This document shows, piece by piece, positions 2,623 through 40,437 of a DNA stretch of 47,298 bases (position 1 is the stretch's first letter; the number at the start of each line of letters is the position of its first letter). Both the position numbers and the translations under genes were made by a program. The notes under the pieces were generated by a model. That model was not told the origin of the DNA. It saw nothing but the letters and a program-made list of their open reading frames with translations, and did no database searches. The DNA lies in NCBI GenBank assembly GCA_016649835.1, contig JAENWX010000001.1, positions 1-47,298 on the forward strand. Reading direction: 5' to 3'. Source of the DNA: Minisyncoccota bacterium. GTDB lineage: Bacteria; Patescibacteriota; Minisyncoccia; Phycocordibacterales; UBA9973.

Positions 2623-5600
2623 ATGCAAAATTACGATCATATAAAAATTGAAAAAAAATGGCAAAAAGAGTGGAGTAAAAATGAAATATACAAAACCTTA
2701 AATAAAGGTAAAAAAATGTATGTACTCGACATGTTCCCATATCCTTCTGGCGTGGGTCTTCATGTTGGCCACCCACGTGGCTATATAGGTAGTGATGTAT
2801 ATGCTCGTATGAAAAGAATGGAGGGTTTTAATGTGCTCCATCCTATGGGTTATGATGCTTTTGGTTTACCCGCAGAACAATATGCATTACAGCATAAAAT
2901 ACACCCTAAAAAAGCCGTAGATGAAAATGTAAAAACTTTTGAAAGACAGCTTTCTATTATTGGGCTTTCTTATGATTGGACTCGTAAGGTCAATACAACC
3001 GACCCAAAATATTATAAATGGACACAATGGATATTCCTTCAAATTTATAATTCTTGGTATGATAAAACTCAAAATAAAGCTCGTCCTATTTCAGAGCTTG
3101 AAAGTCTATTTGAAAAGAATGGTAATGAAAAAATAAATGCCGAATGTAACTCAGACACAGAATTTTTTTCATCAAAAGAGTGGAAGTTATTTTCTAAAAT
3201 AGAAAAACACAACATACTCATGCAATACCGTCTTGCTTATGAAGGACACAGTGAAGTAAATTGGTGTGAAGAAATGGGAACTGTTCTCGCTAATGATGAA
3301 ATAACAAACGACAAAAATGGTAACCCCGTTTCAGAGAGAGGAGGATTCCCGGTTATAAAAAAATCCATGCGCCAATGGTTCATGCGAATTACAGCTTATG
3401 CAGACAGGCTGCTTTCTGGTCTTGATGGATTGGAATGGAGTGACCATATAAAAGAAATTCAAAAGAACTGGATAGGAAAGAGTGATGGTAGTGAAATAGA
3501 ATTTAAGATTCGAGTCCCTGGAAAGTTTTCTTCAGGTCCTCGCCTGCCCGACCTTGCGGTTGTTCGGGCGGGGACGAGGGAGGACGAGGGGCCAGACCAT
3601 TCAGAAAATTTTTCCAGAGACTCTCTTTCTATAAAAGTTTTTACAACCCGCGCAGATACTATTTTTGGTGCGACTTATGTAGTTCTGGCGCCGGAACATC
3701 CATTAATTAATAATTACAAATTACTAATTACTAATTGGAGAGAGATAGAAGAATATATTAATGAAATAAAAAATAAGACCGATGAAGACAGAGTAAAAAA
3801 TGATAAAGAAAAAACAGGAGTAGAACTAAAAGGTATCAAAGCTATCAATCCCGCAAACGGAGAAGAGGTACCAGTTTGGATAGCTGACTACGTGCTTGCT
3901 ACTTATGGGACAGGAGCTGTTATGGCTGTGCCTGCACATGATGAAAGAGATTTTGAATTTGCGAATAAGTATGATTTGGCACTCAAGCAGGTTGTTGTTT
4001 CTAATAATTTATTAAAATCAATAGTTGTAAGTACAACCTTGGATAACGATATTGATTTTAAGTATCAGTTACAAAAAAGTAAAATTGACTTTACTTTATC
4101 AATAAGTTCAATAAGCAATCGCGAGCATATTAGAGTTGAATTAAAAAAAGAAAATCTTCAAGAGTTTATTAATATTGTACAGAAATATATAAAAGAAAAA
4201 TGTTGGGTTGAGATACTTGGAAATGAAAATATAATTGTACTTAAAAACGAAGTTCATAAAGATTTTCTGAATCACTCAGAAGAGTGGTTTAAGAAATTTT
4301 TAGAATGGGAACCTTTTATTAAAGGACAGAAAAATTTATGGGATATGCTTTCTAAAAATACTTTTTTTCAAAATTTAGTTTGTTATCAAGATGATGGAAT
4401 ATTAACTAATTCAGGAAAATTTAATGGTTTAACTTCCGAAGAAGCCCGCGCACAAATTACGAAATTTGTAAATGGAAAAATAGTTACAAAATTTAAAATG
4501 AGAGATGCAATATTTGCTCGTCAAAGATATTGGGGTGAGCCAATTCCACTTAAACATAACCCAGATGGAACAACAACAGAAGTAAAAGAAAAAAATCTTC
4601 CTTTAGAATTACCAAACATTAAATCTTATGTTTCAACTGGTACAGGTGAGTCTCCACTTGCAGGAGTTAAGTCTTGGGTGAAGGAAGGCTATGAGACAAA
4701 CACAATGCCTGGATGGGCTGGGTCTTCTTGGTACTTCTTGCGTTATATGGATCCTCAGAATAGTAAAGCTTTTGCGTCTAAAAAATCTCTTGAGTACTGG
4801 AAAGATGTAGATGTGTATGTTGGCGGACTCGAGCATGCTACTGGGCATTTACTCTACTCTCGTTTTTGGAATAATTTCTTATTTGATTTAGGTCATGTTC
4901 CAACAAGAGAACCATTTAAAAAACTTAGAAATCAAGGAATGATTTTGGCTAGTGATGGACGTAAAATGAGTAAAAGATGGAATAATGTAGTAAACCCAGA
5001 TGACATAGTAAAAAACTATGGAGCAGATACTTTGCGTATATATGAAATGTTCATGGGACCATTTGAACAAAGCCTACCATGGTCTACAGAAAGCATTATT
5101 GGCTCACGAAGATTTATAGACCGCGTCTTTAGACTTCAATCTAAAGTTACAAATAAAAAAAGTGACATAGAAGTAGAAAAAATTTTTCACAAAACACTTA
5201 AAAAGGTTAGTGAAGATATAGAAAATTTTGCTTTCAATACGGCAGTTTCTTCAATGATGATTTTATTAAATGAAATAGAAAAGTTTGAAAATATTGGAAA
5301 AGCTGAGTTTAAAATTTTATTACAGATGTTAGCTCCTTTCGCTCCTCACGTAACAGAAGAACTTTGGTCTAATACAGGAGAAAAGAAATCCATCCATAAA
5401 AGTTCTTGGCCTAAATGGGACAAAAATAAAATTGTTGATGATATGATTAAAATTGCTGTTCAAGTAAATGGTAAAGTAAGAACAGAAATTATGATATCAA
5501 AAGATATGTCAGAATCTGAAATTAAAGAAATGGCGCTAAAAGATAAAAATATTTTAACCTGGACAGAAGGAAAAGAAATAAAAAGAGTTATATATGTTCC

Positions 5601-5915: not shown

Positions 5916-6003
5916 AGAAAAGTATTTTAAGGATATCGGCTATCCGAAATATTAAAAATACTAAATCTTGTTCATCCGAGATATTCTTATAAATCTATAC
6001 ATA

Positions 6004-9000
6004 ATGCAACTTCTAGATAATATCATTTCTTTAAATCAAGCAGCCGAAATTTCTGGGTATACTCAGGACTATCTTGGTTATTTAGTACGCATAGGTGAGA
6101 TCAAAGGTGTTAAAAAAGGAGGGGTCTGGTTTATCACTAAAGAAGAGCTTAATGACTATCTATTGAAGAAAAAACCCATTCAAACAGACTCAAACACTAA
6201 AGATTTCTTTCAAAAAATTTGGCACAAAAAAATAGACGTTAAAGATTTCATTTCACATCTCTCTCCTCGTAATTTTTTGGTTTCCGCTCTTATTATATTC
6301 GTGGGACTTTCTTCGGTTGGAGCCTATCTTTTTGAGAAAAATAATTACAATCAAACTTTATCTTCCGCATTTCAATCCTTCGTTCTTTCGGATCATACAG
6401 AAGAGGTGAAAGCAAATAAGATAGGAGATTTACTTTCAAATGTTTCTGACGGACTGGCTTATGGATGGAGTGAATTTACTTTTGAAATTTTAGATGATAT
6501 TAAAAATTCTACAAACACAACAAAAGAATTAGTAGCTTTCGTTGGTGCTGAAGTTGCAAATAGAGTTCAACTTGTCGGAGATAGAATTACTTCCGTTTTA
6601 AATAATACAAAAAAGTTTTTTACTAATACTAAAAAATTTGTTGCAGTAGTGAAGACTCCTGTACCCGATAGGAAAGTTCCACTTGGCTCTTCACTAAAAG
6701 CTTCAGCCATTGATTCACTAAAGTCTGGTAGTGATTCTTTAACCTCTATCTCTACGGGATTAGCCAATGGTTGGATAACATTCACGGATTGGATTTTAAA
6801 TAATATTAAAAATTCAATCATTGGGACAAAAGAATTTGCAGTTTCTGTTGGTGATGGTGCAAAGTTTGTTGGTAATTCAATCACTAATGAAATCACATCT
6901 CAACGAACAGTAATCTCGGCATGGGGACATTCAATCCCAAGTAAAATAGTTTCAATCTGGAATTCAACCAAAAAGTTTGTCATTGATTTTATTTCTCAAC
7001 CACCAAAGTTAATAGTCAAAAGTCCAATAGTTATTCCTCCTTCACTGACAACAACTGCCCCAACAATTAAAGTTGAAGTTCCAGAACCAGAAGCCTCTAG
7101 TATAGCAGGCTCTCAACGACCGGCAACTTCGGCATCGGGAAGTACCACAATAATTCAACGAATTTATGAACAACCACAAACAACAATTATCAATCAAGTT
7201 GACCCAACCCTTTTCTCTAGAATCCAAGGTATTGAATTAGCTCTTCTAAATAATATCTCTCATAACTCTAATCAAACAAATAGAATATACGACAGTGTCG
7301 GTAGAAGTATATCCGGAGCTTCAAACAACATTACCGAAGAAGGAACATTAAATAATACAACAATAAATGATGCTACCCTTGTGAACTTCACTTCTACTGG
7401 AAATGCTTTATTTACCAAAGTTCCAACTCTGGCTCATGCTTTTGACCCTTCTTGGCCATCTGACATTTCAAATGTTTCCAATTCCTCACTCTATATCAAT
7501 CCTGCTTCTTCAGTATTGGATGGCAATCTGCTCGGTCTTGCTGTTGGAGGAGTTGTTAAATTTCTAGTTGATACTGAAGGTGATATTTATGGTAACAGTT
7601 TAATCTTAACTGGTTCTGTTACTCAAGGTAATACTACAGTAGAAAATCTAACAGTTGGTGGAAATATTATTTTAGGTGATGCTTCGACTGACACTTTAAC
7701 CATCAATTCCGCCAATTGGACTTTTGCCAACGATACCAACTTCGCGCTATCAGGAGGCCTTAATGGTTTATCTTTTGATACCGATACTCTTTTCATTGAT
7801 TCGCTCAATCACCGCATCGGCATCGGGACAACGAATCCGGGGAGTAAATTGGAAGTTGCTGGAACTTTTTCACAAACGGGAGCCAATACATTTGGAACAG
7901 GGACAGGGGTAATATCACTTAATGGAGCAACTACTATCACTGGCATCAATACTTTCACAACTGGTACAGGCACTGTAGAATTTAAAAATGTCTCTACCAA
8001 TATTTCTTCTATCAATCCCGTCATTGATACGACGGATGCCACCTCTACTCTATCCATAAACACAGTTACGAACAGACCGACAACCTTTGGGACAGGGCTA
8101 GTGACTATTCCAAATCTATTGATCACAAATTCTCAGGGCAATAATGGAACTATGGGTATTACTTCCAGCGCCACCACGGAAACTATTTTCTCAGTCACGG
8201 GTGCATCTCTAACTTCTGGCACAGGCATTGCGGAGAATATCACCGCCAATGCAAACAATGGGGAGATTACAAAAGGGCACACGATTACTATTACCGATGC
8301 CACTGTTGGCGGGGGCGGATACACTGCATTGTCAATCAGTACTTCGGGAGCTGGGGTTGGCTTGGGCAACAAATATCTTTTAGATATGAATCCGGGAGCA
8401 AATAAAGAAGTTGTGTTTGATTCGGCTGGAGCATTTAGACCAACCACTTCCGTTGCTTCCAACACCAACACTATTGGTTCATCCGATTTTTATTGGAAGA
8501 ATGGATATTTTGACCAAATTACTGCCAACAATATTTCCGGAGTGGTGGTCGGAGGAGCGACTTCATCCACTTCGTGGACCATCGGCTCTACTCAAGTCGC
8601 TGATGTCAATGAAAGTTTAATTTTTTATAGAAATAATCTAGGGGCTGGTAATGCTTCACTTCAATGGAACGCTGGTGCGGGCGACTTGCGGCATTTCACC
8701 GTCAATTATCCGTTTAACGCCACTTACACAGTCAATGATACTTCAATCACGACTGGTGTGAATTTATATTCTGGAAACTTGGTCAACAACACCACCACTG
8801 GCACTCAGAAACTTTTATCTCTGACCAACACCGGTACAGGTACGACAGAAACTGGCATTTATATAGGCAACACCGGCACAGGAACGACCGCTCTTGAAGT
8901 CGCTGGCACGTGGACCAATGGAATAATTACCAACAACAATTCTATTAATGCTGGGAGTGGAGCAATTACCGGTGGAGCAGGAACTTTCACGACCTTAAAT

Positions 9001-12000
9001 GGTAACACTATTACTACCGGTACAGGTATTCTTACAATATCTGCTGGCAAAACTTTAACTATTTCCGACTCAACAACATTTGGAACTAATGCGATTACTT
9101 TGGCAGGAGGAGAAGTAATAACATTCTCACCCGCTAATGCACTTTCACTTCTAACTACAGGAGGAACTTCTGTTACTTTGCCGACCACCGGCACGCTAGC
9201 TACACTCGCTGGTGCAGAAGCTCTTACAAACAAGACTATTGTTGCAGGTAGTAATACGATTTCAGGAATTATCAATGCTAATCTCTCAGGTACAGCAGGA
9301 ATATCAAACGCAAACCTTGCCAACTCTACTATCAGTGGAATATCTCTCGGCGGAACATTACCCACCCTTACTTTTGGCACCCATCTCTCAGGTATTTCTT
9401 ACAATGGTTCAACAGCGGTAACCATCGCAACAGATGCAACTGATGCAAACACTGCAGGAACTATTGTTTCAAGAGATGCATTTGGTAACTTCTCGGCGGG
9501 AGCAATTACTTCCGGCCTCATCAACTCTCAAACCATTTCCTCAAATGCTTCCTTCACTGGTACGGTTAATGCAGTTACTGGTTACAAATTAAACGGCATT
9601 GCTACTTCTGGTAATGTGCTTCGCGGGGATGGTATCAACTTCGTCAATGCTACTCTCGGTGGCTCTGATATTACTGGTGCAGCTCTTACCAAGACCGATG
9701 ACACCAATATTACTCTTACCCTAGGAGGCACTCCAGCGACTTCACTTTTGCGCGCAACGAGCTTGACCCTTGGCTGGAGTGGGTTACTTTCTCCCGCTCG
9801 TGGTGGTACTGGAGTAAACAACGGCACGAACACCCTTACTTTGGGTGGGAACTTAATTACCTCTGGAGCCTTTGCCACCACTCTCACTACCTCTGGAATC
9901 ACAGCTCTCACTTTGCCGACTTCAGGAACTCTCTATAGTACAGCGACGGGTTCCATCACGTCTCTCTCAGTACTCACTTCCGTATCTGATGAAACTGGCT
10001 CGGGGGCTTTGGTCTTTGCAACTTCTCCAACTCTAGTTACTCCAGTATTAGGAGCAGCAACTGCTACAACTGTTAATGCCTTAACTCTAACTGCAGCTGC
10101 TGATGGTTTCACTATCGCAGGTGGAACAGTATCAAGAACATTAACAGTTACAGGTGCTGATGCTTCAATCTCTGGAACACATACAGGTACATCATCTGGA
10201 ACAAACACTGGCGACAATGCTACCAACTCTCAATACTCAGGTCTTGCAGCTTCTAAATTAGATACTGGACTAGCCTTACTTCTTGCTGGAGGGACTATGA
10301 CAGGTGGAATAACTAACTCTACTTCAGTCAATCCCCTCACAACTCTAGCTGAATCTTGGATTGGGCCGAGTTCAACTACTGGTGTTTATTTCAACGGCGG
10401 CAACGTCGGGATTGGTAATACAAGCCCAGATTCAAAATTAAGTATTAATTCTTCAACAGACAATGTAAGTATTATGACTCTTCGTTTTCCTTCAGGTAGT
10501 AATGCTGATAAAGTTGGAATTTTATTTAAGGGGAATGATGGAACTTATAATATAAATTATGCAGAAATGATTGGTGGAGTAGAAAACTGGTCAAATGATG
10601 ATGGGTTCATTGGTTTTAGAACAGCTAAAGCTACTACCTTAGCAGAAAGAATGAGATTAACTTCAAACGGAACTTTGGAAGTTGGTTTTAATTACACAGG
10701 TACAAGTGGAACATTAGCAAATGGAATGATTGTTGAAGGCAACGTCGGCATCGGGACGACGAATCCTGCACAGAAGTTGCATGTTGAAGGTTCTCCTGCG
10801 ATAGGGACAACTGGTACGGAATCAATGTTGTTATTAGGACGTGCCTTGTCTGGCGGGGTTTCATTTAATCAAGCTGCAGCGTTTAAACTTGGCAGATGGC
10901 AAAATGCGGGAGGTACTTATGAATCATTTACTCGGTTAGATATTGCGTTGAAAGATGATGATGCAGTGAACGATTACAGTACAGACGTAACTGTTATGTC
11001 ATTACAAAACAACGGCAACGTCGGCATCGGGACGACGAGTCCAAACGCTAATTTGGAAGTTGTAGGAGCAACAGGAATTATACAAACTATAAATACAACA
11101 GCAGAAGGACTTGGTTATTTCACTACATTAAAATCTGAATATGCTTCTAATACAGGATATTTAGCGTTTGCTGGTGGTGGTGGTACAGGTAAAGTTATTG
11201 GTGGGGCAGCTTATGGAGTGGATACTGTTCTTTTTGCTAATAATACGGAAAGGGTTAGAATATTAAACAACGGCAACGTCGGCATCGGCACGACGAGTCC
11301 ACAAGCGAAATTACAGATTGGTTCAAATATAAATACTATTCCTGCTTCGACTGCATTAAGTACAGTAGGAGGTACAACTATTCGATTTTTGAATGGCGAT
11401 GGTAATGCTGATTATGGTTCATATTTAGCAAGTGGTGGAACAGCACAACTTACTCTTGGTTCAAGATATGCTTCCATTGATACAGATGTGTTAACTGTAA
11501 ATAACGGCAACGTCGGCATCGGGACGACGGGGCCAGGGGCGAAGTTGGATGTCGTAGGAACATCTGTTGCTGGTGGCGCAGAAGGAATATATGTAAGTAA
11601 CACCACTTCAGGTAATGCAAACAAAGCGCTTCTGGGGGTTACAAGTGCCACATTCTCTTATGGCAGTTTGGGTGGTAATGAGACCGTGTTATTCAACGCG
11701 GCGACATCGCCGATATCATTGGTTACGGCGGATGCCCAACCAATAAAATTCATTACGAATTACGCAGAGGCGATGAGGATACAATCAAACGGCAACGTCG
11801 GCATCGGGACGACGGCACCAGGAGAAAAACTTGAAGTAAATGGAAAAATTAAAGTTTTAGGTGCATTTGGGTCTATTATAGGATACAGGTCATTTGGTTC
11901 AAATTTTAGTATGGATAGCAGTGGAGTTTATACTACGACAGATACTCATGCTAGTTATGGTTATTCAGGTATGGTGGCATCTTGGGGGTCACTTCATTTT

Positions 12001-15000
12001 TTTGCTAATGAAGTAGCAACAACGGCAGGTCAAACAATTACACCATCTGAAAAAATGACAATATTAGGAGCATCAGGCAACGTCGGCATCGGGACGACGA
12101 ATCCGGTGAGCGCTTTGAATGTTGCAGGTACAACAGGATTAACATGGGGAAATGGTAGTTCGCCATCAAAAGGTTTACTGACCGTTGGTTCTCAGGGTAC
12201 GGGAGGAAGTTCTTTGTTCGTTAACACCCCTGGGTATGCATCAACATTTGGTGCTGGGTTTGGGGTTGATGGAACTTTTAGCGGGTCTACTGCAACAATA
12301 AATTTGAAAGCATTTGGAATATTTCCAGGAGATACTGGTTGGGGGTCAAACTTAACATTTTCTACAACCTTAGATAATACTCTCAATGAGAGAATGAGGA
12401 TGGATAAGAACGGCAACGTCGGCATCGGGACGACGGGGCCGACAGCTAAATTAGAGGTTGGAGGTAATTTTATTGGTTCAGCACCAGTTGATGCTATTGT
12501 AATAAGAGCATTAACTGATGGACAGTATCAAGGAGGATTTATAAATTGGAAAGCTAACATTGCTTCCAGTAACTTTTCTTTAAGTAAGATATATGGAGGG
12601 AGAGATAATGTAGAAGCTTCATCTAAATTAGGATTTTTTACTAATAGTGATATTTATAATGTTGCTGACCTATCTTCTGAAAAAATGACTATTTTAGGAA
12701 ACGGCAACGTCGGCATCGGGACGACGAGTCCAGGGTCAAAACTTGATGTGAATGGAACTATCGCTGTTAGACAATCTAGCAATGGAACAAGTGGGACACC
12801 TTTGGAAACCATAGGACTGCTTGGAACTAACAGCTTGGGAAATACTGGTATTCCTATGCCTTCCATAAATTTTGTAAACTCTTGGACTACTAACAATAAT
12901 TCATGGATGAATTTTCATGTTCGTAATAACACTATTGATACTGTTGCAATGACTCTTCTATATAACGGCAACGTCGGCATCGGGACGACGGCACCGATGT
13001 ATAAATTAGATTTGGGCAACACATCACTTGATAGTAATACATTGAGATTTGGTGTTGGGACACGGAATTCAACTGGTGCACAGTATCCTGCCAAAATAGA
13101 TTTATATGTATATGACGCTAATCCTGTTAATCAATATTTAAGATTTTATGCCCCAAACGGTAATCCAAGTGGTGCGACAGAAGCTGATAGACAAACATTG
13201 GGAATGGTCATCAATGGAAACGGCAACGTCGGCATCGGGACGACGAGTCCTGCGACACAAATGCATATTGTTGGCGTGGGTCAAAGAACCGCAGCTTTAA
13301 CTGATGCGGGCGCTAAAGGCTCAACACTTTTTCTTGAGGATCCAACAAGTGATACCGGAACCGGTGGTGCTATAACTTTTGGCGGTGGAGCAGCGAATGG
13401 TAGTGTGCCACAAGCAGCAATAAAACTTCTACTATCTAATGGAGGAGCGAATGGTACGGGTGACCTTGCTTTCTCCACTCGTAATGTGGCGTCAGATGTA
13501 GCTCTAACAGAAAGGATGAGAATATTAAATAACGGCAACGTCGGCATCGGGACGGTGGGACCGGGGGCATTGTTGCATCTTGGCAAAGCAGGGAGTCTTA
13601 ACGAATCTGATACTGCGTTTGACTTAGCCGACTCTGATACTCTGCTTAAATTGGAAAACACTGGTCCATCTTATGGCTCAGAAACAGCTTTGTCTTTAGG
13701 TGCAACGGTTTCTTCTGCCTACAGGCCAGCTGGACTCATTACGGGTAAATTTTGGGGACCCTCCGACTTTAACAGTGGACGTCTCGGATTCTCAACATCA
13801 AATTCTGGCACACTTGGCTTGCGTATGGTGATTGATGAAACTGGCAACGTCGGCATCGGGACGACGAGTCCACAAGTTCCATTAACTATTTATGGCTCTT
13901 CTGGAAATGTTGATATAAATGTAGGGAGTAGAAATGGAGTAGCGACTGGAAAAGCATTAGTATTAAGATATAATTTAACTGATGACTATGGACAGATTGC
14001 TAGTTATGATTATGCAACAGGTGCAAAAAATTTAGTTATTAACCCAATTGGTGGCAACGTCGGCATCGGGACGACGGCACCACAAGCCAAGCTGACTATA
14101 AAGGGTAATCAATTATTTGCGGGTAATCCCGATATTGGTTCTTACGGGAAGTTAGAAGCTGTCTATGATGGAAACATTGCTACTTACGGCACAGCTGCGA
14201 GTATAGATTTTTATCGTCCGATAGCAACATACGGTAATGAAGGAGAAATTCGTTTTAGCACCAGTCCAGGAGTAGGTGGTGTATCAACTCCAACACAGAG
14301 AATGGTAATAGATAAGAATGGCAACGTCGGCATCGGGATGACGGCACCGGGGGCGAAGTTGGATGTTGTATACCCAGGTACTATCGGAACATCTTTAACA
14401 ACTTTAAGGGCATTTGGATATGATGCAGATAGTTATTTTAGTGTGTCAAATGACGCAAATAATTCAGCAAATGTTGCGCTTTACAGGTCTGATACAATAA
14501 AGATGTTTGAGGTTCTTGGTCATACCGGTAAAGCATATTTTAACGGCAACGTCGGCATCGGGACGACGGGGCCGAGTGGCAAACTCGATGTTGCTGGTGG
14601 TACGGCATATTTCTCTGGTCTAAGTACAGCCGCGCGTCAAGTGATTGGTCTTTCTAGTGATGGAGTTACAAATCAAATTCAATCAACTTATCTAGGTGCT
14701 TCTAGCTTCGTGCCTCTGGCGTTTCAAGTTGGTGGGGGGGAAAAGGTCAGAATATTAACAAACGGCAACGTCGGCATCGGGACGACGGGGCCGACGTATA
14801 AATTAGAAGTGAACGGAGGAGCCACTTCCCCTTTATCTGTTTATTCAAGCAGCGATTATCAGTTAGGGCTAAGGAATACAGGAGATGCTGGTGGTTGGTG
14901 GCTTAAGAGCTATGGTGCGGGAGCATTTGCTTTACATGAAAATGGAATTGGAGATAAATTAACTTTTGATGATAGTGCAACTGGAAATGTGTATTTTCAA

Positions 15001-16026
15001 AACATAGGCAACGTCGGCATCGGGACGACGAATCCGAGTACAAATAAATTGGTTGTCGTCGGAGATATAAGAGTTGGAACAACTGGTACAGATGGTTGTA
15101 TACAAAGATTCGATGGTACAGCTCTCACCGGTTCTTGTTCATCAGATATTAGATTAAAGAAAGACATTAATTCTATCACAGGAGTTTTAGAAAACTTTGT
15201 TAACCTAAATCCAGTTACTTACAAATGGAGAGCTGATGAGTACCCAGAGAGAGGATTTGGTACAGGTATGGTTACAGGTTTAATTGCTCAAGAAGTAGAA
15301 GGTATCTTTCCTGAATTAGTAAACAAAGACAGTCAGGACTTCTTTACAGTAGACTACGGAGTGAATTTACAAATGCTATCCATACAAGCGATTAAGGAAC
15401 TCAATTTGAAAGTGGAAGATTTGTCTTCGCTTGATATAAAAAATCCTACTTCATTTGGATCTCTTATTAAATATTTCTTAGCCGATATTAGTAATGGCTT
15501 AGAGAAGATTTTTGTTAAAGAGGTAAATACTGACACTTTGTGTGTTTACGATGCTACAGGAGCCAAAACCTGTATAAATAAGGCTCAATTGGACGCATTG
15601 TTGGTTGGTGTCGGAACGACTTATAGTGGTTCCAGTAGTAGTTCAAGTGAGAGTAATGTTGTTCTATCAAGTTTTGATGAGAATTTAGTAAATGCTAAAA
15701 CAGAAGCCAATGGAAAAATAGAAACAGATTATACATCAGAAAGTTGGGGAACATTTAATTCAGCATTAACTCTAGATTTAGAATTATCAGAGACAAATGA
15801 TGAAGAAAAAATTACAAAAACAAATGCCATCAATGATGCAATTTCAGGATTAGAATTATTAATAGTGGAAGAAGTTGTTGATGTACTACCAGAGGAAGTT
15901 CCTCCAGCTGAAGAGCCGGTGGTTGAAGCTCCAGCGGAAGAACCCGTAGTTGAAGCTCCAGCGGAAGAGCCGGTAGTTGAGCCAACAGCAGTTGAAACGA
16001 TAGTTGAGCCAGCTCCAGTAGAATAA
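6004..16026 (+). CDS. Giant (~3340 aa) membrane-anchored repetitive surface protein: HTH-like N-terminus, one TM, and a Peptidase S74-like intramolecular chaperone motif in the C-terminal region
   Basis: One uninterrupted ORF; the track starts at TTG 5968 and the first ATG is 6004. The N-terminus LSLNQAAEISGYTQDYLGYLVRIGEIKGVKKGGVWFITKEEL resembles an excisionase/MerR-type HTH, followed by the TM FLVSALIIFVGLSSVGAYLF. A T/G/S/N-rich region follows, then 17 modules containing NGNVGIGTT. CSSDIRLKKDI...LIAQEVEGIFPELV matches the tail-fibre autoproteolysis motif. Confidence 0.85.
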   Translation: MQLLDNIISLNQAAEISGYTQDYLGYLVRIGEIKGVKKGGVWFITKEELNDYLLKKKPIQTDSNTKDFFQKIWHKKIDVKDFISHLSPRNFLVSALIIFVGLSSVGAYLFEKNNYNQTLSSAFQSFVLSDHTEEVKANKIGDLLSNVSDGLAYGWSEFTFEILDDIKNSTNTTKELVAFVGAEVANRVQLVGDRITSVLNNTKKFFTNTKKFVAVVKTPVPDRKVPLGSSLKASAIDSLKSGSDSLTSISTGLANGWITFTDWILNNIKNSIIGTKEFAVSVGDGAKFVGNSITNEITSQRTVISAWGHSIPSKIVSIWNSTKKFVIDFISQPPKLIVKSPIVIPPSLTTTAPTIKVEVPEPEASSIAGSQRPATSASGSTTIIQRIYEQPQTTIINQVDPTLFSRIQGIELALLNNISHNSNQTNRIYDSVGRSISGASNNITEEGTLNNTTINDATLVNFTSTGNALFTKVPTLAHAFDPSWPSDISNVSNSSLYINPASSVLDGNLLGLAVGGVVKFLVDTEGDIYGNSLILTGSVTQGNTTVENLTVGGNIILGDASTDTLTINSANWTFANDTNFALSGGLNGLSFDTDTLFIDSLNHRIGIGTTNPGSKLEVAGTFSQTGANTFGTGTGVISLNGATTITGINTFTTGTGTVEFKNVSTNISSINPVIDTTDATSTLSINTVTNRPTTFGTGLVTIPNLLITNSQGNNGTMGITSSATTETIFSVTGASLTSGTGIAENITANANNGEITKGHTITITDATVGGGGYTALSISTSGAGVGLGNKYLLDMNPGANKEVVFDSAGAFRPTTSVASNTNTIGSSDFYWKNGYFDQITANNISGVVVGGATSSTSWTIGSTQVADVNESLIFYRNNLGAGNASLQWNAGAGDLRHFTVNYPFNATYTVNDTSITTGVNLYSGNLVNNTTTGTQKLLSLTNTGTGTTETGIYIGNTGTGTTALEVAGTWTNGIITNNNSINAGSGAITGGAGTFTTLNGNTITTGTGILTISAGKTLTISDSTTFGTNAITLAGGEVITFSPANALSLLTTGGTSVTLPTTGTLATLAGAEALTNKTIVAGSNTISGIINANLSGTAGISNANLANSTISGISLGGTLPTLTFGTHLSGISYNGSTAVTIATDATDANTAGTIVSRDAFGNFSAGAITSGLINSQTISSNASFTGTVNAVTGYKLNGIATSGNVLRGDGINFVNATLGGSDITGAALTKTDDTNITLTLGGTPATSLLRATSLTLGWSGLLSPARGGTGVNNGTNTLTLGGNLITSGAFATTLTTSGITALTLPTSGTLYSTATGSITSLSVLTSVSDETGSGALVFATSPTLVTPVLGAATATTVNALTLTAAADGFTIAGGTVSRTLTVTGADASISGTHTGTSSGTNTGDNATNSQYSGLAASKLDTGLALLLAGGTMTGGITNSTSVNPLTTLAESWIGPSSTTGVYFNGGNVGIGNTSPDSKLSINSSTDNVSIMTLRFPSGSNADKVGILFKGNDGTYNINYAEMIGGVENWSNDDGFIGFRTAKATTLAERMRLTSNGTLEVGFNYTGTSGTLANGMIVEGNVGIGTTNPAQKLHVEGSPAIGTTGTESMLLLGRALSGGVSFNQAAAFKLGRWQNAGGTYESFTRLDIALKDDDAVNDYSTDVTVMSLQNNGNVGIGTTSPNANLEVVGATGIIQTINTTAEGLGYFTTLKSEYASNTGYLAFAGGGGTGKVIGGAAYGVDTVLFANNTERVRILNNGNVGIGTTSPQAKLQIGSNINTIPASTALSTVGGTTIRFLNGDGNADYGSYLASGGTAQLTLGSRYASIDTDVLTVNNGNVGIGTTGPGAKLDVVGTSVAGGAEGIYVSNTTSGNANKALLGVTSATFSYGSLGGNETVLFNAATSPISLVTADAQPIKFITNYAEAMRIQSNGNVGIGTTAPGEKLEVNGKIKVLGAFGSIIGYRSFGSNFSMDSSGVYTTTDTHASYGYSGMVASWGSLHFFANEVATTAGQTITPSEKMTILGASGNVGIGTTNPVSALNVAGTTGLTWGNGSSPSKGLLTVGSQGTGGSSLFVNTPGYASTFGAGFGVDGTFSGSTATINLKAFGIFPGDTGWGSNLTFSTTLDNTLNERMRMDKNGNVGIGTTGPTAKLEVGGNFIGSAPVDAIVIRALTDGQYQGGFINWKANIASSNFSLSKIYGGRDNVEASSKLGFFTNSDIYNVADLSSEKMTILGNGNVGIGTTSPGSKLDVNGTIAVRQSSNGTSGTPLETIGLLGTNSLGNTGIPMPSINFVNSWTTNNNSWMNFHVRNNTIDTVAMTLLYNGNVGIGTTAPMYKLDLGNTSLDSNTLRFGVGTRNSTGAQYPAKIDLYVYDANPVNQYLRFYAPNGNPSGATEADRQTLGMVINGNGNVGIGTTSPATQMHIVGVGQRTAALTDAGAKGSTLFLEDPTSDTGTGGAITFGGGAANGSVPQAAIKLLLSNGGANGTGDLAFSTRNVASDVALTERMRILNNGNVGIGTVGPGALLHLGKAGSLNESDTAFDLADSDTLLKLENTGPSYGSETALSLGATVSSAYRPAGLITGKFWGPSDFNSGRLGFSTSNSGTLGLRMVIDETGNVGIGTTSPQVPLTIYGSSGNVDINVGSRNGVATGKALVLRYNLTDDYGQIASYDYATGAKNLVINPIGGNVGIGTTAPQAKLTIKGNQLFAGNPDIGSYGKLEAVYDGNIATYGTAASIDFYRPIATYGNEGEIRFSTSPGVGGVSTPTQRMVIDKNGNVGIGMTAPGAKLDVVYPGTIGTSLTTLRAFGYDADSYFSVSNDANNSANVALYRSDTIKMFEVLGHTGKAYFNGNVGIGTTGPSGKLDVAGGTAYFSGLSTAARQVIGLSSDGVTNQIQSTYLGASSFVPLAFQVGGGEKVRILTNGNVGIGTTGPTYKLEVNGGATSPLSVYSSSDYQLGLRNTGDAGGWWLKSYGAGAFALHENGIGDKLTFDDSATGNVYFQNIGNVGIGTTNPSTNKLVVVGDIRVGTTGTDGCIQRFDGTALTGSCSSDIRLKKDINSITGVLENFVNLNPVTYKWRADEYPERGFGTGMVTGLIAQEVEGIFPELVNKDSQDFFTVDYGVNLQMLSIQAIKELNLKVEDLSSLDIKNPTSFGSLIKYFLADISNGLEKIFVKEVNTDTLCVYDATGAKTCINKAQLDALLVGVGTTYSGSSSSSSESNVVLSSFDENLVNAKTEANGKIETDYTSESWGTFNSALTLDLELSETNDEEKITKTNAINDAISGLELLIVEEVVDVLPEEVPPAEEPVVEAPAEEPVVEAPAEEPVVEPTAVETIVEPAPVE
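10738..15030 (+). repeat. 17 in-frame copies of the GC-rich core GGCAACGTCGGCATCGGGACGACG
   Basis: Core starts at 10738, 11014, 11272, 11506, 11791, 12076, 12412, 12703, 12967, 13222, 13534, 13843, 14053, 14320, 14545, 14764 and 15007. Fourteen copies are identical over 24 nt and three differ by 1-2 nt. Spacings of 210-336 nt are all multiples of 3. Confidence 0.95.
15907..15987 (+). repeat. 27-nt tandem repeat x3 encoding AEEPVVEAP
   Basis: Read directly at the extreme C-terminus of the giant ORF. Confidence 0.85.
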
Positions 16027-20222: not shown

Positions 20223-20255
20223 TCTTCAGAAAGGGCCTTAGGCCCTTTCTGAAGA
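20223..20255. repeat. REP-like perfect palindrome, copy 1 (inverted orientation)
   Basis: TCTTCAGAAAGGGCC-tta-GGCCCTTTCTGAAGA, 15-bp stem. It begins 8 nt after the murJ stop and lies 26 nt upstream of the transposase ATG. Confidence 0.85.
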
Positions 20256-20280: not shown

Positions 20281-20955
20281 ATGAGAAAACAACCTATTAT
20301 TACAGGTGAGTATTATCACATATATAACCGTGGAGTTGATAAACGAGATGTTTTTAGTGATAAAATGGATATTAGACGTTTTGTTGAAAGTATAAATGAA
20401 TTTAATCAAGTTGATGTAATAGGAAGTTTGATTAATTTAAGAAAATCTAAAAATATCCAGAAAGGGCCTAAGGCCCTTTCTGAGGAACCATTAGTTGTTA
20501 TAATGGTATATTGTTTGAATCCAAATCATTTTCACTTTGTCTTGAAGCAATTAGAAGATGGAGGAATATCAAAGTTTATGCAAAAATTACAAAGTGGATA
20601 TACTTCTTATTTTAATGTAAAAAATTCTAGATCCGGTTCACTATTCCAGGGAACTTTTAAAGCACAACATATAGGTAGTGAAAATTATTTTAATAAAACT
20701 CTCGGATATGTAAATAAAAATTATCAAGTTCATAATATTCCAGAGGATAAAAAAGAATTAGTTTTTGCCAGTGATTATGAATATGAAAATAATAATTTTA
20801 AAATTGTTTCAAAAATAGAGGGAAATAGAATTTTAGAAATTTTTGGTGGAGTTGGTGGATTTAAAAGACATTCAGATGAAATAGTTGAGATTATTAGGAA
20901 GGAAAGAGGCAAGACTTCTCTTTTAGAAGATGAAGAATTACCAGAAAGGGCCTAA
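20281..20955 (+). CDS. HUH/Y1 transposase, IS200-like, REP-associated (RAYT-like)
   Basis: 224 aa. YHIYNRGVDKRDVF, HUH motif in NPNHFHFVLK, GYTSYFN, and GSLFQGTFKAQHI (compare the G.WQ.RF..H pattern of RAYTs). The palindrome occurs upstream, inside, and at the stop codon. Confidence 0.7.
   Translation: MRKQPIITGEYYHIYNRGVDKRDVFSDKMDIRRFVESINEFNQVDVIGSLINLRKSKNIQKGPKALSEEPLVVIMVYCLNPNHFHFVLKQLEDGGISKFMQKLQSGYTSYFNVKNSRSGSLFQGTFKAQHIGSENYFNKTLGYVNKNYQVHNIPEDKKELVFASDYEYENNNFKIVSKIEGNRILEIFGGVGGFKRHSDEIVEIIRKERGKTSLLEDEELPERA
20458..20482. repeat. REP-like palindrome, copy 2, in frame inside the transposase ORF
   Basis: CAGAAAGGGCC-taa-GGCCCTTTCTG, read in frame as QKGPKALSE. Confidence 0.85.
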
Positions 20956-20966
20956 GGCCCTTTCTG
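20942..20966. repeat. REP-like palindrome, copy 3, supplying the transposase stop codon
   Basis: CAGAAAGGGCC-taa-GGCCCTTTCTG. The loop TAA (20953-20955) is the ORF stop, in a different frame from copy 2. Followed by (GAGT)3. Confidence 0.85.
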
Positions 20967-21130
20967 AGTGAGTGAGTGTTATTTGAGGCCTTTGATTTTA
21001 AAGCTTTTTTTGGTAGTATAGACCTATGTCTCCGCTCGCGATGTGTATGTCATAATCTACGGGATAGTTTATAATAGAAATAAGGTTTATATTACTAAAT
21101 AAAATTAATAAGATACGTCCCATCTAACGA

Positions 21131-21148: not shown

Positions 21149-23014
21149 ATGGATATCAAATCAATTAGAAACTTTTCAATCATTGCCCATATTGACCACG
21201 GGAAAAGTACTTTGGCTGACAGAATGATAGAAGTTACTGGCACAATAGAAAAACGTAAAATGAAAGACCAAGTTCTAGATTCAATGGATCTAGAAAGAGA
21301 ACGCGGCATAACTATTAAGATGCAGCCGGTTCGCATGGAATATAGTCCTAAAATTAAGAATGATAAATTAGGAATTAAGAATGATAATATAAAACCAGAA
21401 AAATACATATTAAACCTAATCGATACTCCTGGCCACATAGACTTCTCCTATGAAGTATCTCGCGCCTTAAAGGCCGTAGAAGGGTCTATATTGCTCGTGG
21501 ATGCGACTCAAGGGGTTCAAGCACAAACACTTACAACTCTACAAATGGCTCGTGATTCTGGGCTAGTTATAATTCCAGTTCTTTCAAAAATTGACTCTCC
21601 TCTAGCTCGTGTGGATGAAATAAAAATGGAGGTGTCTATTTTGTTGAATATAGACCCGGATACTATTTTGCTTGTTTCTGGTAAAACAGGGGAAGGTGTA
21701 CCTGAATTACTTGAAGAAATAATTAATAAAATTCCATGTCCTCATGTTGATAATAATATATTACCAACAAGCACAGGTGCACGTGCTTTAGTTTTTGATT
21801 TTAAATATGACAATCACAGAGGTGTAATAGTTTATATTCGAGTAGTAGATGGAAAATTTAAAAAAGGAGAATCTCTTTTGTTCGCTGTGTCTTCAGAAAA
21901 ATTTATTTCCCTAGAAGTGGGTATTTTTTCTCCACAAGAGGAAGCGCGGGAAACTCTGGGTAATGGAGAAATTGGATACATAGTAACAGGAATTAAAAAG
22001 CCCGGAATTGCTTCTGTTGGTGACACTATAACTTTTTTGAAAAATCCAATGCCAGCATTGCCGGGATATAAAAATCCAAAGCCTGTGGTTTGGGCTTCTA
22101 TATATCCTGAAAGCCAGGATGATTTTCCAAATCTTAAACAAGCATTAAGTAGGCTGCGTTTATCGGATTCATCATTTTCTTATGAAGAAGAAAATTCTGG
22201 TTCTCTAGGAAGAGGGTATCGATGTGGTTTTTTGGGAATGCTTCATTTAGAAATTATTACAGAAAGACTAAATCGTGAATTTAATTTAGAATTAATAGTA
22301 ACTATGCCTTCCATTACTTACAAGGTAATGCTTCGAAATGGCACAGAACAAATTGTATATTCTCCGCATCTTTTTCCTGATGATGGAAATATAATAAAGG
22401 TTTTTGAGCCATGGGTTAATGCAAAGATTATTACCCCTTCTATATATTTAAGTTCACTTATGCCATTTTTGTATGACCATGAAGGACTAGTTAAAGAAAC
22501 TGATAATTTTGGAGATAACAGATCTTCTGTTGATTTAGAAATGCCACTACGTGAATTAATGAGAAATTTCTTTGATGATATGAAAAGTATTACATCTGGT
22601 TATTCTTCTATATCTTATGAAATAGGTGAGTATAAAGAAGCTGATGTTGTGAGACTTGATATTATAGTAGCAGATGAACCGATGGCAGCATTTTGTAGAG
22701 TAGTATCACGAAGAAAAGTAGAAGAAGAAGCTAAACAGCAAGTAGAAAAATTAAAAGATATTATTCCAAGACAACAATTTAATTTTAAAATTCAAGGTAA
22801 GGCTTTGGGTAGGATTATATCATCTGAGTCAGTTTCAGCCTTTAGAAAAGACGTTCTCATGCACGGAAGTAAAATGGTTGGAGGAGGGGATGTGAGTCGC
22901 AAAAAGAAGCTGCTTGAAAAGCAGAAAAAAGGAAAAAAGAGAATGCAATCGAACGCTAAGATAAATATATCTCACGAAGTTTTCCTTAAAATGATGAGAG
23001 GAACCAATAATTAA
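21149..23014 (+). CDS. lepA: Elongation factor 4 (LepA)
   Basis: 621 aa. IRNFSIIAHIDHGKSTLADR, LNLIDTPGHIDF, and a LepA C-terminal region. Confidence 0.95.
   Translation: MDIKSIRNFSIIAHIDHGKSTLADRMIEVTGTIEKRKMKDQVLDSMDLERERGITIKMQPVRMEYSPKIKNDKLGIKNDNIKPEKYILNLIDTPGHIDFSYEVSRALKAVEGSILLVDATQGVQAQTLTTLQMARDSGLVIIPVLSKIDSPLARVDEIKMEVSILLNIDPDTILLVSGKTGEGVPELLEEIINKIPCPHVDNNILPTSTGARALVFDFKYDNHRGVIVYIRVVDGKFKKGESLLFAVSSEKFISLEVGIFSPQEEARETLGNGEIGYIVTGIKKPGIASVGDTITFLKNPMPALPGYKNPKPVVWASIYPESQDDFPNLKQALSRLRLSDSSFSYEEENSGSLGRGYRCGFLGMLHLEIITERLNREFNLELIVTMPSITYKVMLRNGTEQIVYSPHLFPDDGNIIKVFEPWVNAKIITPSIYLSSLMPFLYDHEGLVKETDNFGDNRSSVDLEMPLRELMRNFFDDMKSITSGYSSISYEIGEYKEADVVRLDIIVADEPMAAFCRVVSRRKVEEEAKQQVEKLKDIIPRQQFNFKIQGKALGRIISSESVSAFRKDVLMHGSKMVGGGDVSRKKKLLEKQKKGKKRMQSNAKINISHEVFLKMMRGTNN
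21352..21393 (+). repeat. 21-nt tandem duplication containing AATTAAGAAT, in frame in lepA
   Basis: AATTAAGAATGATAAATTAGG / AATTAAGAATGATAATATAAA encodes KIKNDKLGIKNDNIK, in the segment between RMEY and YILNLIDTPGH that looks longer than in the LepA sequences I recall (from memory, not aligned). Confidence 0.75.
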
Positions 23015-23576: not shown

Positions 23577-23647
23577 GCGAGTATAATACAGTGGCAGTAT
23601 ATTTGCTTCCCAAGCAAAATACGCGGGTTCGATTCCCGCTACTCGCA
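23577..23647 (+). tRNA. tRNA-Gly (anticodon CCC)
   Basis: Hand-folded cloverleaf. Acceptor GCGAGTA/TACTCGC, D stem ATAC/GTAT, anticodon stem TTTGC/GCAAA, loop TTCCCAA, 4-nt variable loop, T arm GCGGG-TTCGATT-CCCGC, discriminator A. No encoded CCA. Confidence 0.9.
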
Positions 23648-23688
23648 CATATTAAAAAACACTTTTTGGAGTGTTTTTTAATATGTGC
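23645..23688. terminator. AT-rich 19-bp perfect palindrome (terminator-like) overlapping the tRNA-Gly 3' end
   Basis: GCACATATTAAAAAACACT-ttttgg-AGTGTTTTTTAATATGTGC. Confidence 0.55.
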
Positions 23689-23806
23689 GGGATAGCAAGC
23701 CAACTGCTTGGCTTGCGTACGGGAATTGAAAGACTTTTCGTTCTCTGATGTTAACCAGAGCAAAAAGTACCTGAACATGTAATGTTCGATTCCCGCTACT
23801 CGCACC
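23686..23806 (+). ncRNA. tRNA-tethered structured element, copy A (Gly)
   Basis: GCGGGATA; P2 23695-23716 (GCAAGCCAA-ctgc-TTGGCTTGC); CGGGAATTGAA (23720-23730) pairs with TTCGATTCCCG (23785-23795); AGAC; P4 CTTTTC...GAAAAG; TACC; P5 23773-23787 (GAACA-tgtaa-TGTTC). 23785-23804 is an exact copy of the tRNA-Gly 3' end. Strand and RNA status are unproven. Confidence 0.5.
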
Positions 23807-24202: not shown

Positions 24203-24274
24203 GCCCACGTAGTTCAATGGATAGAATAGCTCACTCCTAACGAGCTGATTCAGGTTCGACTCCTGACGAGGGCA
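24203..24274 (+). tRNA. tRNA-Arg (anticodon CCT)
   Basis: Hand-folded. Acceptor GCCCACG/CGAGGGC with an A5-A68 mismatch, D stem GTTC/GAAT, anticodon stem GCTCA/CGAGC (one A-C), loop CTCCTAA, T arm TCAGG-TTCGACT-CCTGA. Confidence 0.75.
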
Positions 24275-24315
24275 CAATAAATAAACCTTAAAAAGGTTTA
24301 TTTATTGTGCCCTCG
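24267..24315. terminator. 23-bp perfect palindrome spanning the tRNA-Arg acceptor 3' strand and the start of element B
   Basis: CGAGGGCACAATAAATAAACCTT-aaaa-AAGGTTTATTTATTGTGCCCTCG. Confidence 0.55.
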
Positions 24316-24790: not shown

Positions 24791-24863
24791 GCCGAGATAG
24801 CTCAGTTGGTAGAGCGCTCCCCTGAAGAGGGATAGGTCCCCAGTTCAAATCTGGGTCTCGGCA
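24791..24863 (+). tRNA. tRNA-Phe (anticodon GAA)
   Basis: GCCGAGA-TA-GCTC-AGTTGGTA-GAGC..., anticodon loop CTGAAGA, T arm CCCAG-TTCAAAT-CTGGG, acceptor 3' TCTCGGC, discriminator A. Confidence 0.9.
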
Positions 24864-24896
24864 CACGAAATAATATAAGTTTAATAATAAAACTTT

Positions 24897-24938
24897 CCTT
24901 CAGGTGAGATAGCCAGTTCAAATCTGGGTCTCGGCACA
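24897..24938 (+). pseudogene. tRNA-Phe fragment (mosaic) ending in an exact 25-nt copy of the tRNA 3' end
   Basis: CAGTTCAAATCTGGGTCTCGGCACA (24914-24938) equals 24841-24865. It is preceded by GAGATAGC (matching the tRNA 5' region) and TTCAGGTGAG (resembling the complement of the anticodon arm). Confidence 0.6.
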
Positions 24939-24971: not shown

Positions 24972-25086
24972 GCCGAGACAACACATGAACTACTTCATGT
25001 GTGTCCAGATTTGAAAGACTTTTCATTATCAGCTGTGCTGATTGAAAAGTACCCGACTAAGTAATAGTCTAATCTGGGTCTCGGCA
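24972..25086 (+). ncRNA. tRNA-tethered structured element, copy C (Phe)
   Basis: P1 GCCGAGAC/GTCTCGGC; P2 24980-25003 (AACACATGAA-ctac-TTCATGTGT); P3 CCAGATT (25005-25011)/AATCTGG (25071-25077); AGAC; P4 CTTTTCA..ATCAG-c-tgtg-CTGAT.TGAAAAG; TACCC; P5 25055-25069 (GACTA-agtaa-TAGTC). Confidence 0.5.
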
Positions 25087-25094
25087 CAATAAAT

Positions 25095-32221: not shown

Positions 32222-32251
32222 TTAAGAATTAATAATTACGAATTAAGAATT
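32219..32251. repeat. AATTAAG/AATTACG heptamer repeats between murE and murD
   Basis: TAATTAAGAATTAATAATTACGAATTAAGAATT, starting in the murE stop codon. Confidence 0.7.
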
Positions 32252-32259
32252 TAAAAAAA

Positions 32260-38185: not shown

Positions 38186-38241
38186 CCCCCACACCTATAT
38201 TTATGACAGGCTTTAGCCTGTCATAAATATAGGTGTGGGGG
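38186..38241. repeat. 26-bp perfect palindrome flanked by a GGTTTAC direct repeat
   Basis: CCCCCACACCTATATTTATGACAGGC-ttta-GCCTGTCATAAATATAGGTGTGGGGG, with GGTTTAC at 38179-38185 and 38241-38247. Confidence 0.8.
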
Positions 38242-40364: not shown

Positions 40365-40437
40365 AATTACGAATTACGAATTAAAAATTAACCCAGTAGG
40401 TGATTTTACTAAATCAGAATTAAAGATAAAAAATTAA
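40365..40437. repeat. AATTACG/AATTAAA heptamers plus the short form of the 750-812 unit
   Basis: AATTACG AATTACG AATTAAA AATTAAC, then CCAGTAGGTGATTTTACTAAATCAGAATTAAAG. Confidence 0.7.

Follow-up and report, generated by a model that had tools for sequence, protein, structure and literature searches.

A synonymously frozen 24-nucleotide core at the module boundaries of a giant fibre gene in a Minisyncoccota bacterium: a candidate recombination linker

A modular fibre gene and its repeated core

The first 47,298 nucleotides (nt) of contig JAENWX010000001.1 from a Minisyncoccota bacterium (GenBank assembly GCA_016649835.1), hereafter the window, contain a giant forward-strand gene for a predicted surface fibre (5968-16026, 3352 codons), in which a 24-nt coding sequence, GGCAACGTCGGCATCGGGACGACG, termed the core, is repeated at the start of each of 17 modules. 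The open reading frame (ORF) opens with TTG at 5968 and its likely start is the ATG at 6004. All features of the gene are encoded on the same strand. An N-terminal helix-turn-helix of the excisionase/MerR-like HTH_17 type (6028-6171; PF12728, E = 2.4e-5, 24.9 bits, slightly under the 27-bit cut-off) is followed by a hydrophobic stretch read from the translation (NFLVSALIIFVGLSSVGAYLF, 6271-6333), a probable membrane anchor of the fibre protein, and by approximately 1400 residues rich in Thr, Gly and Ala that lead to the module array (10738-15030). Every module begins with the core and ends in an ERMRI-like strand. Downstream of the array lies a Peptidase_S74 intramolecular chaperone/autoprotease domain (15142-15321, amino acids (aa) 3059-3118; PF13884, E = 6e-14) with the SDxxxK motif defined for such domains (PMC10769870), here SDIRLK (15142-15159). 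Finally, a 27-nt tandem repeat detected with Tandem Repeats Finder (15902-16011) encodes PAEEPVVEA-like units at the C-terminus.

The modules match the PHROG tail-fibre families 9942 (3e-49) and 18345, and a phmmer search against the PDB retrieved the mosaic adhesive trimer (MAT) fibres of Bdellovibrio (8OND, 2e-8; 8OML, 2e-5; 8ON4, 6.5e-5), the alignment to these solved fibres spanning ERMRI...GNVGIG..AP.AKL.V. Judged by these similarities, the protein belongs with the S74-terminated β-helix fibres of the phage tail fibre/MAT superfamily, and its trimer formation and chaperone autoproteolysis are predicted from family membership. Fibres of this kind form an intertwined trimeric β-helix in which such motifs are capping loops at the β-helix edges, the G of T681-SGNLG being the start of the first β-helix domain in Bd2133 (PMC10769870). 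The core motif is one residue longer than the published V-G-G/N-pi-x-x-P-x-x-x-L consensus. By homology, then, the peptide GNVGIGTT is conserved for a structural reason and marks the module boundaries, which leaves its nucleotides unexplained.

A scan of the window that allowed up to three mismatches identified 17 core copies, starting at 10738, 11014, 11272, 11506, 11791, 12076, 12412, 12703, 12967, 13222, 13534, 13843, 14053, 14320, 14545, 14764 and 15007, all on the forward strand and all in frame within the ORF, where they specify GNVGIGTT; 100 dinucleotide-preserving shuffles yielded zero matches. Identity across the copies is approximately 99%. Fourteen are exact, and the others carry a synonymous GGG>GGC change (11272), a two-base ACG>GTG change replacing Thr by Val (13534) and an ACG>ATG change replacing Thr by Met (14320). 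Since only one of these four base changes is synonymous and three are nonsynonymous, the synonymous sites of the core are, on small numbers, about as constrained as its replacement sites. An earlier note made from the letters of the window had counted 14 identical copies among 17, with the rest 1-2 nt off, and had described the core as usually preceded by AAC; both statements are borne out, the preceding codon being AAC in 11/17 copies and AAT in one. The distance of 210-336 nt that it gave between cores is correct as their start-to-start spacing, whereas the inter-core DNA measures 186-312 nt.

The codons of the core are rare in this genome. Within their families, in the other genes of the window, GGC accounts for 12%, AAC for 19%, GTC for 7%, ATC for 6%, GGG for 9% and ACG for 4%, and the probability per copy of drawing the core codons given the peptide is 2e-9 with the codon usage of these genes and 1e-8 to 2e-7 with the non-core usage of the fibre gene itself. 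The proportion of G or C at third codon positions (GC3) follows a step profile, with 1.00 over the eight core codons against approximately 0.2 to 0.25 in the flanks and small shoulders of 0.65 at codon -1 and 0.3-0.5 at codons +2 to +6, in line with the contrast previously drawn between a GC-ending core and A/T-ending flanks. The flanks had likewise been called divergent with good reason: ungapped identity between modules is 0.38 over the 30 nt upstream of the core (-30..-1), 0.48 over the 30 nt downstream (+1..+30) and 0.30-0.31 farther out. Exact runs through the core that are common to pairs of modules extend over 24-35 nt, with a median of 25. At the invariant Pro two codons 3' of the core the third base is free (CCA 7, CCG 8, CCT 2). 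The core of the window gene is thus frozen at its synonymous sites and has sharp edges.

Two further core-like elements, both absent from the earlier note, lie upstream of the array on the forward strand: a decayed 18th core (GGCAACGTCGGGATTGGTAATACA, 10399-10422) that reads GNVGIGNT and keeps the first 11 canonical nt, and an outlying partial core (ATCGGCATCGGGACAACG, 7816-7833) that reads IGIGTT after His-Arg and has two mismatches to core positions 7-24. The residue after the core, in the window and in 311 near-canonical copies elsewhere, is Ser, Gly, Ala, Thr or Asn; this position begins with a purine in all copies seen, and Ser is encoded there by AGY in 99/108 cases and rarely by TCN.

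A search with the N-terminus found nearest orthologues at 36-47% identity, the three with a source name being annotated as Candidatus Paceibacterota; orthologues also bear the annotation of helix-turn-helix proteins. The fusion of a cytoplasmic DNA-binding-like domain to an extracellular fibre is unusual and is common to the Paceibacterota orthologues. All three orthologue contigs that were fetched (P0001-P0003, here L241, L242 and L243, loci being denoted by L numbers) stop inside the gene, 334-822 codons in, and therefore supply no orthologous array. These breaks are probably the assembly cost of such repeats, and fibre diversity is then probably under-sampled. A smaller relative of 796 aa on the reverse strand of L054 (1627-4017) has the region after the S74 domain in common with the window protein and ends in a PEPTPEPAP tail, and since it ends similarly, the Pro/Glu-rich C-terminal tail is a conserved feature of the subfamily.

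The core in other genomes and at junctions in relatives

An exact scan for the 24-mer in one genome of each species gave at least 120 loci. Among the matches listed, the candidate phyla radiation (CPR) is represented by Paceibacterota, Saccharibacteria, Doudna-, Berkel-, Nomura-, Gracili- and Peribacteria and others, the remaining bacteria by Elusimicrobia, Omnitrophica, Bdellovibrionales, Acidobacteria, Planctomycetales, Bacteroidia, Nitrospirota, Spirochaetia and Margulisiibacteriota, and the archaea by 15 loci from Woese-, Pace-, Aenigm- and Nanoarchaeota, Methanosarcinales and Methanoregula, several of them on contigs of 150-460 kb. The archaeal copies lie within module proteins of the same ERMRI...GNVGIGTT.P..KL.V type. 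Local GC content at the listed loci ranges from 0.285 to 0.62, with 32 loci at or below 0.42. In these loci 200/475 GNVGIGT copies are exact, a share that falls to approximately 22% once the one ascertaining copy per locus is excluded, most others being 1-3 bases off. An independent sample was picked by peptide patterns from the inter-core segments of the window rather than by core nucleotides; here, two loci contain 32 (L245) and 26 (L246) core copies, nearly all with 0-3 mismatches, and the exact core is present in low-GC contigs (L252, 29% GC; L251, 31%; L249, 37%).

A degenerate scan of viral contigs recovered 246 GNVGIGTT copies, mostly written in ordinary A/T-ending codons, with the canonical string as the commonest single variant; 31 copies have at least six of the eight canonical third positions, against 14.9 (maximum 23) in a GC-matched permutation. 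The peptide can thus be encoded without the core nucleotides, as the earlier note had argued. Its proposal of a constraint at the DNA or RNA level has also gained support, in that relatives show no ordinary synonymous drift and the identical 24-mer occurs in the at least 120 loci, including genomes of 28-37% GC. Third-position information in 337 near-canonical copies elsewhere, a sample chosen on the core, is 1.2-1.8 bit inside the core, and outside it 0.19 bit at the invariant Pro (+2) and 0.07-0.10 at conserved Leu, Val and Gly. A second recurrent core type, GGGAATGTGGGGATYGGGACGRCG, was found at 26 loci and goes with different upstream contexts. The residue before it tends to be Ser, Gly or Thr, not Asn, and it accompanies particular module types such as TLMTVLANGNVGIGTA and FVVQQTSGNVGIGTT (examples are L019 4870-4893, L022 4608-4631 and L043 4504-4527 and 6532-6555).

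When the window array was compared with 240 loci using blastn, every match was centred on a core and covered no more than 24-96 nt (median 31). Recent whole-module transfer, or recent common ancestry of the modules, is ruled out by the shortness of these matches. Among the genome loci, the best cross-genome module matches reach 80-83% identity over approximately 150 nt.

More closely related pairs of sequences reveal what happens at the cores. L245 and L246, from two metagenome samples, are 99% identical over 15.7 kb and differ by exactly three structural changes, all of them at cores. The fibre gene of L245 (6178-20496, 4772 aa) adjoins PilC, a pilin-like gene and MurA, and ends in an intramolecular chaperone autoprotease domain; as a side observation, it contains sub-modules of approximately 186 nt, each bounded by two cores and approximately 90% identical to one another. 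The first change is a 216-nt tandem duplication whose middle core is a hybrid, with its 5' part (GGCAACATC) from one parent and its 3' flank (ACCGTGCC) from the other. The second is a 324-nt module present in L245 only: the corresponding L246 core joins the 5' half of the upstream L245 core (GGTAACGTCGGCATC) to the 3' flank of the downstream one and, because it is such a hybrid, the crossover can be placed within GGGACGACG. In the third, 1802 nt are replaced by an unrelated 158 nt, from just past a core-like element up to the base that opens the next core. At the first two junctions the sequences share exact runs of no more than 9-14 nt, too short for an assembler to have mis-joined them at k >= 21, and assembly chimerism is excluded there. 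The remaining 147 point differences are clustered in a few dense patches separated by long stretches with none, and several tracts extend from core to core. This clustering is, as a pattern of differences, the signature of patchy gene conversion. The difference rate is 2.6% in cores against 1.3% overall.

Other relatives show comparable rearrangements. L314 and L346 have two core-to-core blocks in common (90% and 97% identical), which lie side by side in one contig and are separated by 3.2 kb in the other; L314 matches L319 at 98% identity as far as 31 nt beyond a core, after which the two are unrelated; and L307, L314 and L346 all carry a 315-nt core-to-core cassette (97-98% identical) between flanks that bear no relation to one another. 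In L020 a 141-nt core-to-core unit occupies four dispersed sites and a 277-nt unit two. Ends of high-identity blocks fall within 6 nt of a core edge in 17/38 cases on the left and 22/38 on the right, where approximately 3 are expected under the null. In addition, some genes carry a homogenised core of their own, such as L195 with four copies of GGTAATGTTGGTATAGGTACAACA and near variants, L155 with GGT at Gly2 in most copies, and also L075 and L109; these different, internally homogenised cores show concerted evolution within genes.

The cores are therefore recombination junctions in relatives. The role of anchors for in-frame gain, loss and shuffling of modules that the earlier note had proposed first is supported by the structural polymorphism at cores in L245/L246 and L314/L346/L307, that is, in relatives of the window gene. 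Its alternative of upkeep by repeated gene conversion, if confined to this one gene, cannot explain sharing across bacterial and archaeal phyla. The silent core-carrying cassettes that it had suggested looking for do not occur elsewhere in the 47-kb window, where no core copy was found outside the fibre gene on either strand with up to three mismatches.

A proposed recombination linker and competing explanations

The reading favoured here, with a probability of roughly 0.55, is that the 24-27 nt core serves as a DNA-level recombination linker at the boundaries of β-helix modules. It encodes the GNVGIGTT loop at the edge of the trimeric β-helix modules of a surface fibre resembling phage tail fibres and, because it encodes this module-edge loop, a crossover inside it is always in frame and at a structural module boundary. 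The core is the sole stretch of identity between otherwise unalignable modules, and the shared runs of 24-35 bp lie near the minimum for RecA-type homologous exchange, a length that Shen and Huang are said to have put at approximately 23-27 bp for E. coli in 1986. Whether they arise by strand exchange or by slippage during replication, events between any two modules, with paralogues or with imported DNA would be resolved at the core, and the outcomes could include deletion, duplication, relocation or replacement of modules and hence a fibre of altered length and binding surface. The cores would be homogenised by ectopic pairing and repair among themselves, perhaps with a bias towards GC, while a mutated copy would leave the exchange network and eventually be replaced together with its module. 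Sharing across lineages may be attributed to common descent of the module family and to horizontal movement of fibre genes or cassettes, a flow that would make compatibility with the prevailing core self-reinforcing. On this reading the same exchange events would also occur in the window gene, maintain core identity there and be adaptive.

Several points weigh against such a linker. Exact look-ups of the proteins of neighbouring genes (a tetratricopeptide repeat (TPR) protein, LeuRS and MurJ) gave nothing on record and no strain variant of the window gene; six peptide 8-mers from the window, searched in 241 million metagenome records, gave no close relative, the best being 26-54% identical; and the 17 inter-core segments of the window are without signs of recent duplication or exchange. 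High-identity sharing of modules between phyla did not appear in this limited sample, and most of the weight in the junction-enrichment statistic comes from a single locus, L020. In the viral sample, which is unbiased, ordinary codons prevail and the canonical form is only approximately 2-fold enriched over the GC-matched permutation. Furthermore, recombination within a genome can proceed whether or not other phyla have the same core, selection for evolvability acts only weakly and at second order, and conversion tracts of 24 nt with non-homologous flanks are mechanistically marginal. Even identity over the full 24 nt is not strictly needed, because the observed crossovers used 9-14 nt.

A bolder, and doubtful, extension would make the 24-mer a universal linker across phyla: a common DNA standard by which β-helix fibre cassettes could move among the unrelated genomes of CPR bacteria, DPANN archaea, predatory and other bacteria, and their viruses, and recombine there in frame. 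It would be held constant because departing genes or cassettes leave the exchange network. If true, organisms that live by attaching to other cells would draw on a common stock of adhesin modules spread by horizontal transfer.

Base composition bears on two of the competing explanations. The chromosome in the window is Paceibacterota-like, at approximately 31% GC and with a GC3 of 0.21, and the fibre gene has 41-46% GC, as might be expected of modules acquired from a GC-rich donor whose cores have not yet ameliorated. Such a passive relic is scarcely credible: non-core GC3 in the gene is 0.27 against 0.21 in its neighbours, so that the excess of GC stems from amino-acid composition, synonymous sites one or two codons from the core are randomised, the identity of the flanks is near random, and the step-like GC3 profile effectively refutes the idea. 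A neutral molecular drive, in which ectopic pairing with GC-biased repair or conversion homogenises the cores and their identity and use as junctions are by-products without a selected function, is unlikely. It would explain why all eight third positions of the core are G or C in a genome of such low GC3, with small shoulders on both sides, and it agrees with the gene-specific alternative cores and with the clustered, conversion-like differences between L245 and L246. A bias towards GC alone cannot, however, set C versus G at the six four-fold degenerate sites, where GGC, GTC, GGC, GGG, ACG and ACG recur across phyla; L195, L149 and L171 are homogenised on an AT-rich core; and unbiased conversion would leave the rate of change of the consensus unslowed.

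That a single exact sequence has been retained in different domains of life and at different GC contents, in a footprint of the size of a binding site and with a second discrete type (GGGAATGTGGGGATYGGGACGRCG) at 26 loci, would also suit a sequence-specific DNA or mRNA factor whose specificity is reflected in the cross-phylum conservation, be it a site-specific recombinase, an HUH/Y1 enzyme acting on a hairpin or a guide RNA. A candidate enzyme is encoded 4.3 kb 3' of the fibre gene, namely an IS200-like Y1_Tnp (20281-20955), and homologues lie within 8 kb of a core in 7/120 of the listed exact-24-mer loci and in the orthologue contig L242. This explanation is nevertheless improbable. The window Y1 gene has a different cognate palindrome of its own (CAGAAAGGGCCTAAGGCCCTTTCTG), 7/120 is not clearly above background, and none of the viral and metagenome loci has a Y1 homologue; domain searches among window ORFs of at least 150 aa detected no recombinase, invertase or reverse transcriptase in the 47 kb. 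The factor would have to be common to bacteria, archaea and viruses, and crossover points vary inside the core, as in homologous and unlike site-specific exchange. Involvement of a Y1 or RAYT enzyme was down-weighted on account of the distinct palindromes of the nearby gene.

Less probable again is a function in RNA or translation, whether as a hairpin, through slowing of ribosomes on rare codons at module boundaries, or through decoding fidelity of a critical loop at G:C wobble positions. The codons of the core are indeed rare in this genome, a tRNA-Gly(CCC) that reads GGG is encoded nearby, and a 5-bp stem (CGUCG/CGACG, 9-nt loop) is predicted in every copy, with z values of -2.1 to -3.7 for its 81-nt context. 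The 33-nt hairpin, though, is no more stable than shuffles (z = -0.18), and covariation at the proposed pairs (6-24, 9-21, 3-27, -1/30) does not exceed that at non-pairs such as 9-24 and 6-21, z in 1093 copies being 8.0 and 5.1 for proposed pairs against 9.7 and 6.7 for non-pairs. Third positions in the loop are conserved as much as those in the stem, and no Rfam family matches the core. The pausing motif that had been considered earlier fares no better, as the same bases are kept in genomes of 58-62% GC (L024, L058, L028): codon rarity cannot be the conserved trait where the same codons are common. Moreover, S74 fibres fold from the C-terminal chaperone after synthesis (PMC10769870).

Comparable systems, significance and genomic setting

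In working principle, the closest system is that of the T-even phage adhesins gp38 and gp37, in which conserved glycine-rich motifs or His boxes split hypervariable segments and exchanges in or near these motifs produce chimeras (Tetart 1996, 1998; Trojet 2011; PMC3157838). In both cases short conserved motifs alternate with hypervariable segments (here 17 cores at approximately 99% identity and flanks at 30-48%), and junctions fall in or beside the motifs, here in relatives only (L245/L246, L314/L346/L307/L319 and the enrichment test). The fibre gene differs in being a cellular, chromosomal gene of 3352 aa with 17 copies, in the freezing of synonymous sites against a strong AT bias, in an identical 24 nt that spans bacterial and archaeal phyla rather than one phage group, and in the exchange of whole β-helix modules rather than loops. 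Short conserved DNA at the borders of variable coding cassettes is also known from Borrelia vlsE, with its 17-bp direct repeats, and from the conserved segments of Neisseria pilE/pilS, which bracket variable cassettes and bound the recombination tracts. Both of these combine silent donors with one expression site in one genome, whereas here the 47-kb window has none and the core is shared across phyla. In the shufflon of R64, the adjacent tyrosine recombinase Rci acts on 19-bp sfx sites in inverted repeat and exchanges C-terminal segments in frame. There, as in other invertible tail-fibre or pilus-tip segments, short repeats within the gene allow in-frame exchange, but in the window 17/17 cores are direct, no recombinase is encoded in the ORFs of at least 150 aa, and crossover points are variable.

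The kinship with Bdellovibrio MAT proteins and S74 tail fibres or endosialidases (Caulton 2024, PMC10769870; 8OND, 8OML, 8ON4, 8OL4) is one of module homology. It comprises the ERMRI...GNVGIG...P..KL.V periodicity, the C-terminal S74 domain with SDxxxK and the loop motif at β-helix edges, and members of that family likewise differ by swapped parts. MAT proteins in the strict sense have a signal peptide and a β-rich N-terminal domain of approximately 130 aa, in place of the HTH_17 domain and hydrophobic anchor found here, and the phmmer search reported no similarity of the window protein to MAT N-termini. The MAT paper describes mosaicism of proteins and no conserved nucleotide linker (PMC10769870), and literature searches on the peptide motif and on CPR fibres found no paper describing the nucleotide core. 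Three further comparisons were rejected. The palindrome of the Y1 gene (CAGAAAGGGCCTAAGGCCCTTTCTG) differs from the core, which has only a 5-bp stem without covariation, so that the core does not fit a repetitive extragenic palindrome (REP)/RAYT system, in which an adjacent Y1 (HUH) transposase recognises GC-rich palindromes that typically flank its gene; the target of a diversity-generating retroelement, which combines a reverse transcriptase with template and variable repeats that differ at adenines, is not at hand, as the window lacks a reverse transcriptase and the repeated element is invariant rather than variable; and the in-frame repeats inside an ORF, 186-312 nt apart, do not fit a CRISPR array, with its non-coding repeats of 23-50 nt and spacers of approximately 26-72 nt. 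What is new is a matter of degree: the synonymous freeze against a strong AT bias, the 17 copies and the identical 24 nt in both prokaryotic domains.

Attachment to other cells is the way of life of CPR bacteria and DPANN archaea, and little is known about how they vary the structures involved. With a linker at the DNA level, such minimal genomes could alter the length and specificity of their fibres at little cost, since whole modules could be deleted, duplicated or imported without breaking the frame or the fold. It would also be a clean natural case of synonymous sites held against a strong mutational bias for a reason at the DNA level, and one 24-nt coding sequence in genomes of 28-62% GC from both prokaryotic domains is not predicted by ordinary models of codon evolution. 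Should a common standard for cassette exchange lie behind it, conservation of the core across phyla would be highly interesting. On the practical side, the core accounts for the breaks of short-read assemblies in these genes and provides a ready probe or PCR anchor with which fibre modules may be recovered and engineered.

The neighbours of the fibre gene are those of an ordinary chromosome (Sua5, LeuRS, MurJ, LepA, ValRS, TsaD, Mur ligases, penicillin-binding proteins, GreA, RsmH and a DUF5671 protein). The perfect, GC-rich palindrome CAGAAAGGGCCTAAGGCCCTTTCTG, unrelated in sequence to the fibre core, occurs at 20226-20251, 20458-20482 and 20942-20967, that is, on both sides of the Y1_Tnp ORF and inside it. 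The inner copy is in frame (...QKGPKALSE...) and was apparently inserted into the enzyme's own gene, in a REP/RAYT-like layout. Further repeats are associated with tRNA genes: the 3' end of tRNA-Phe (24791-24864), at 24840-24865, is repeated twice just 3' of the gene (24913-24938 and 25063-25088), and that of tRNA-Gly(CCC) (23577-23648), at 23627-23648, is repeated once (23784-23805), both of which resemble remnants of attachment sites duplicated by integrating elements. Near gene boundaries, at 21352-21393, 32220-32261, 32424-32465 and 40365-40391, lie members of an AT-rich repeat family (AATTAAGAATTACGAATTAAGAATTAA and variants). Finally, two perfect inverted repeats, one of 27 nt after a penicillin-binding protein gene (38186-38241) and one of 23 nt after tRNA-Arg (24267-24315), are probably terminators.

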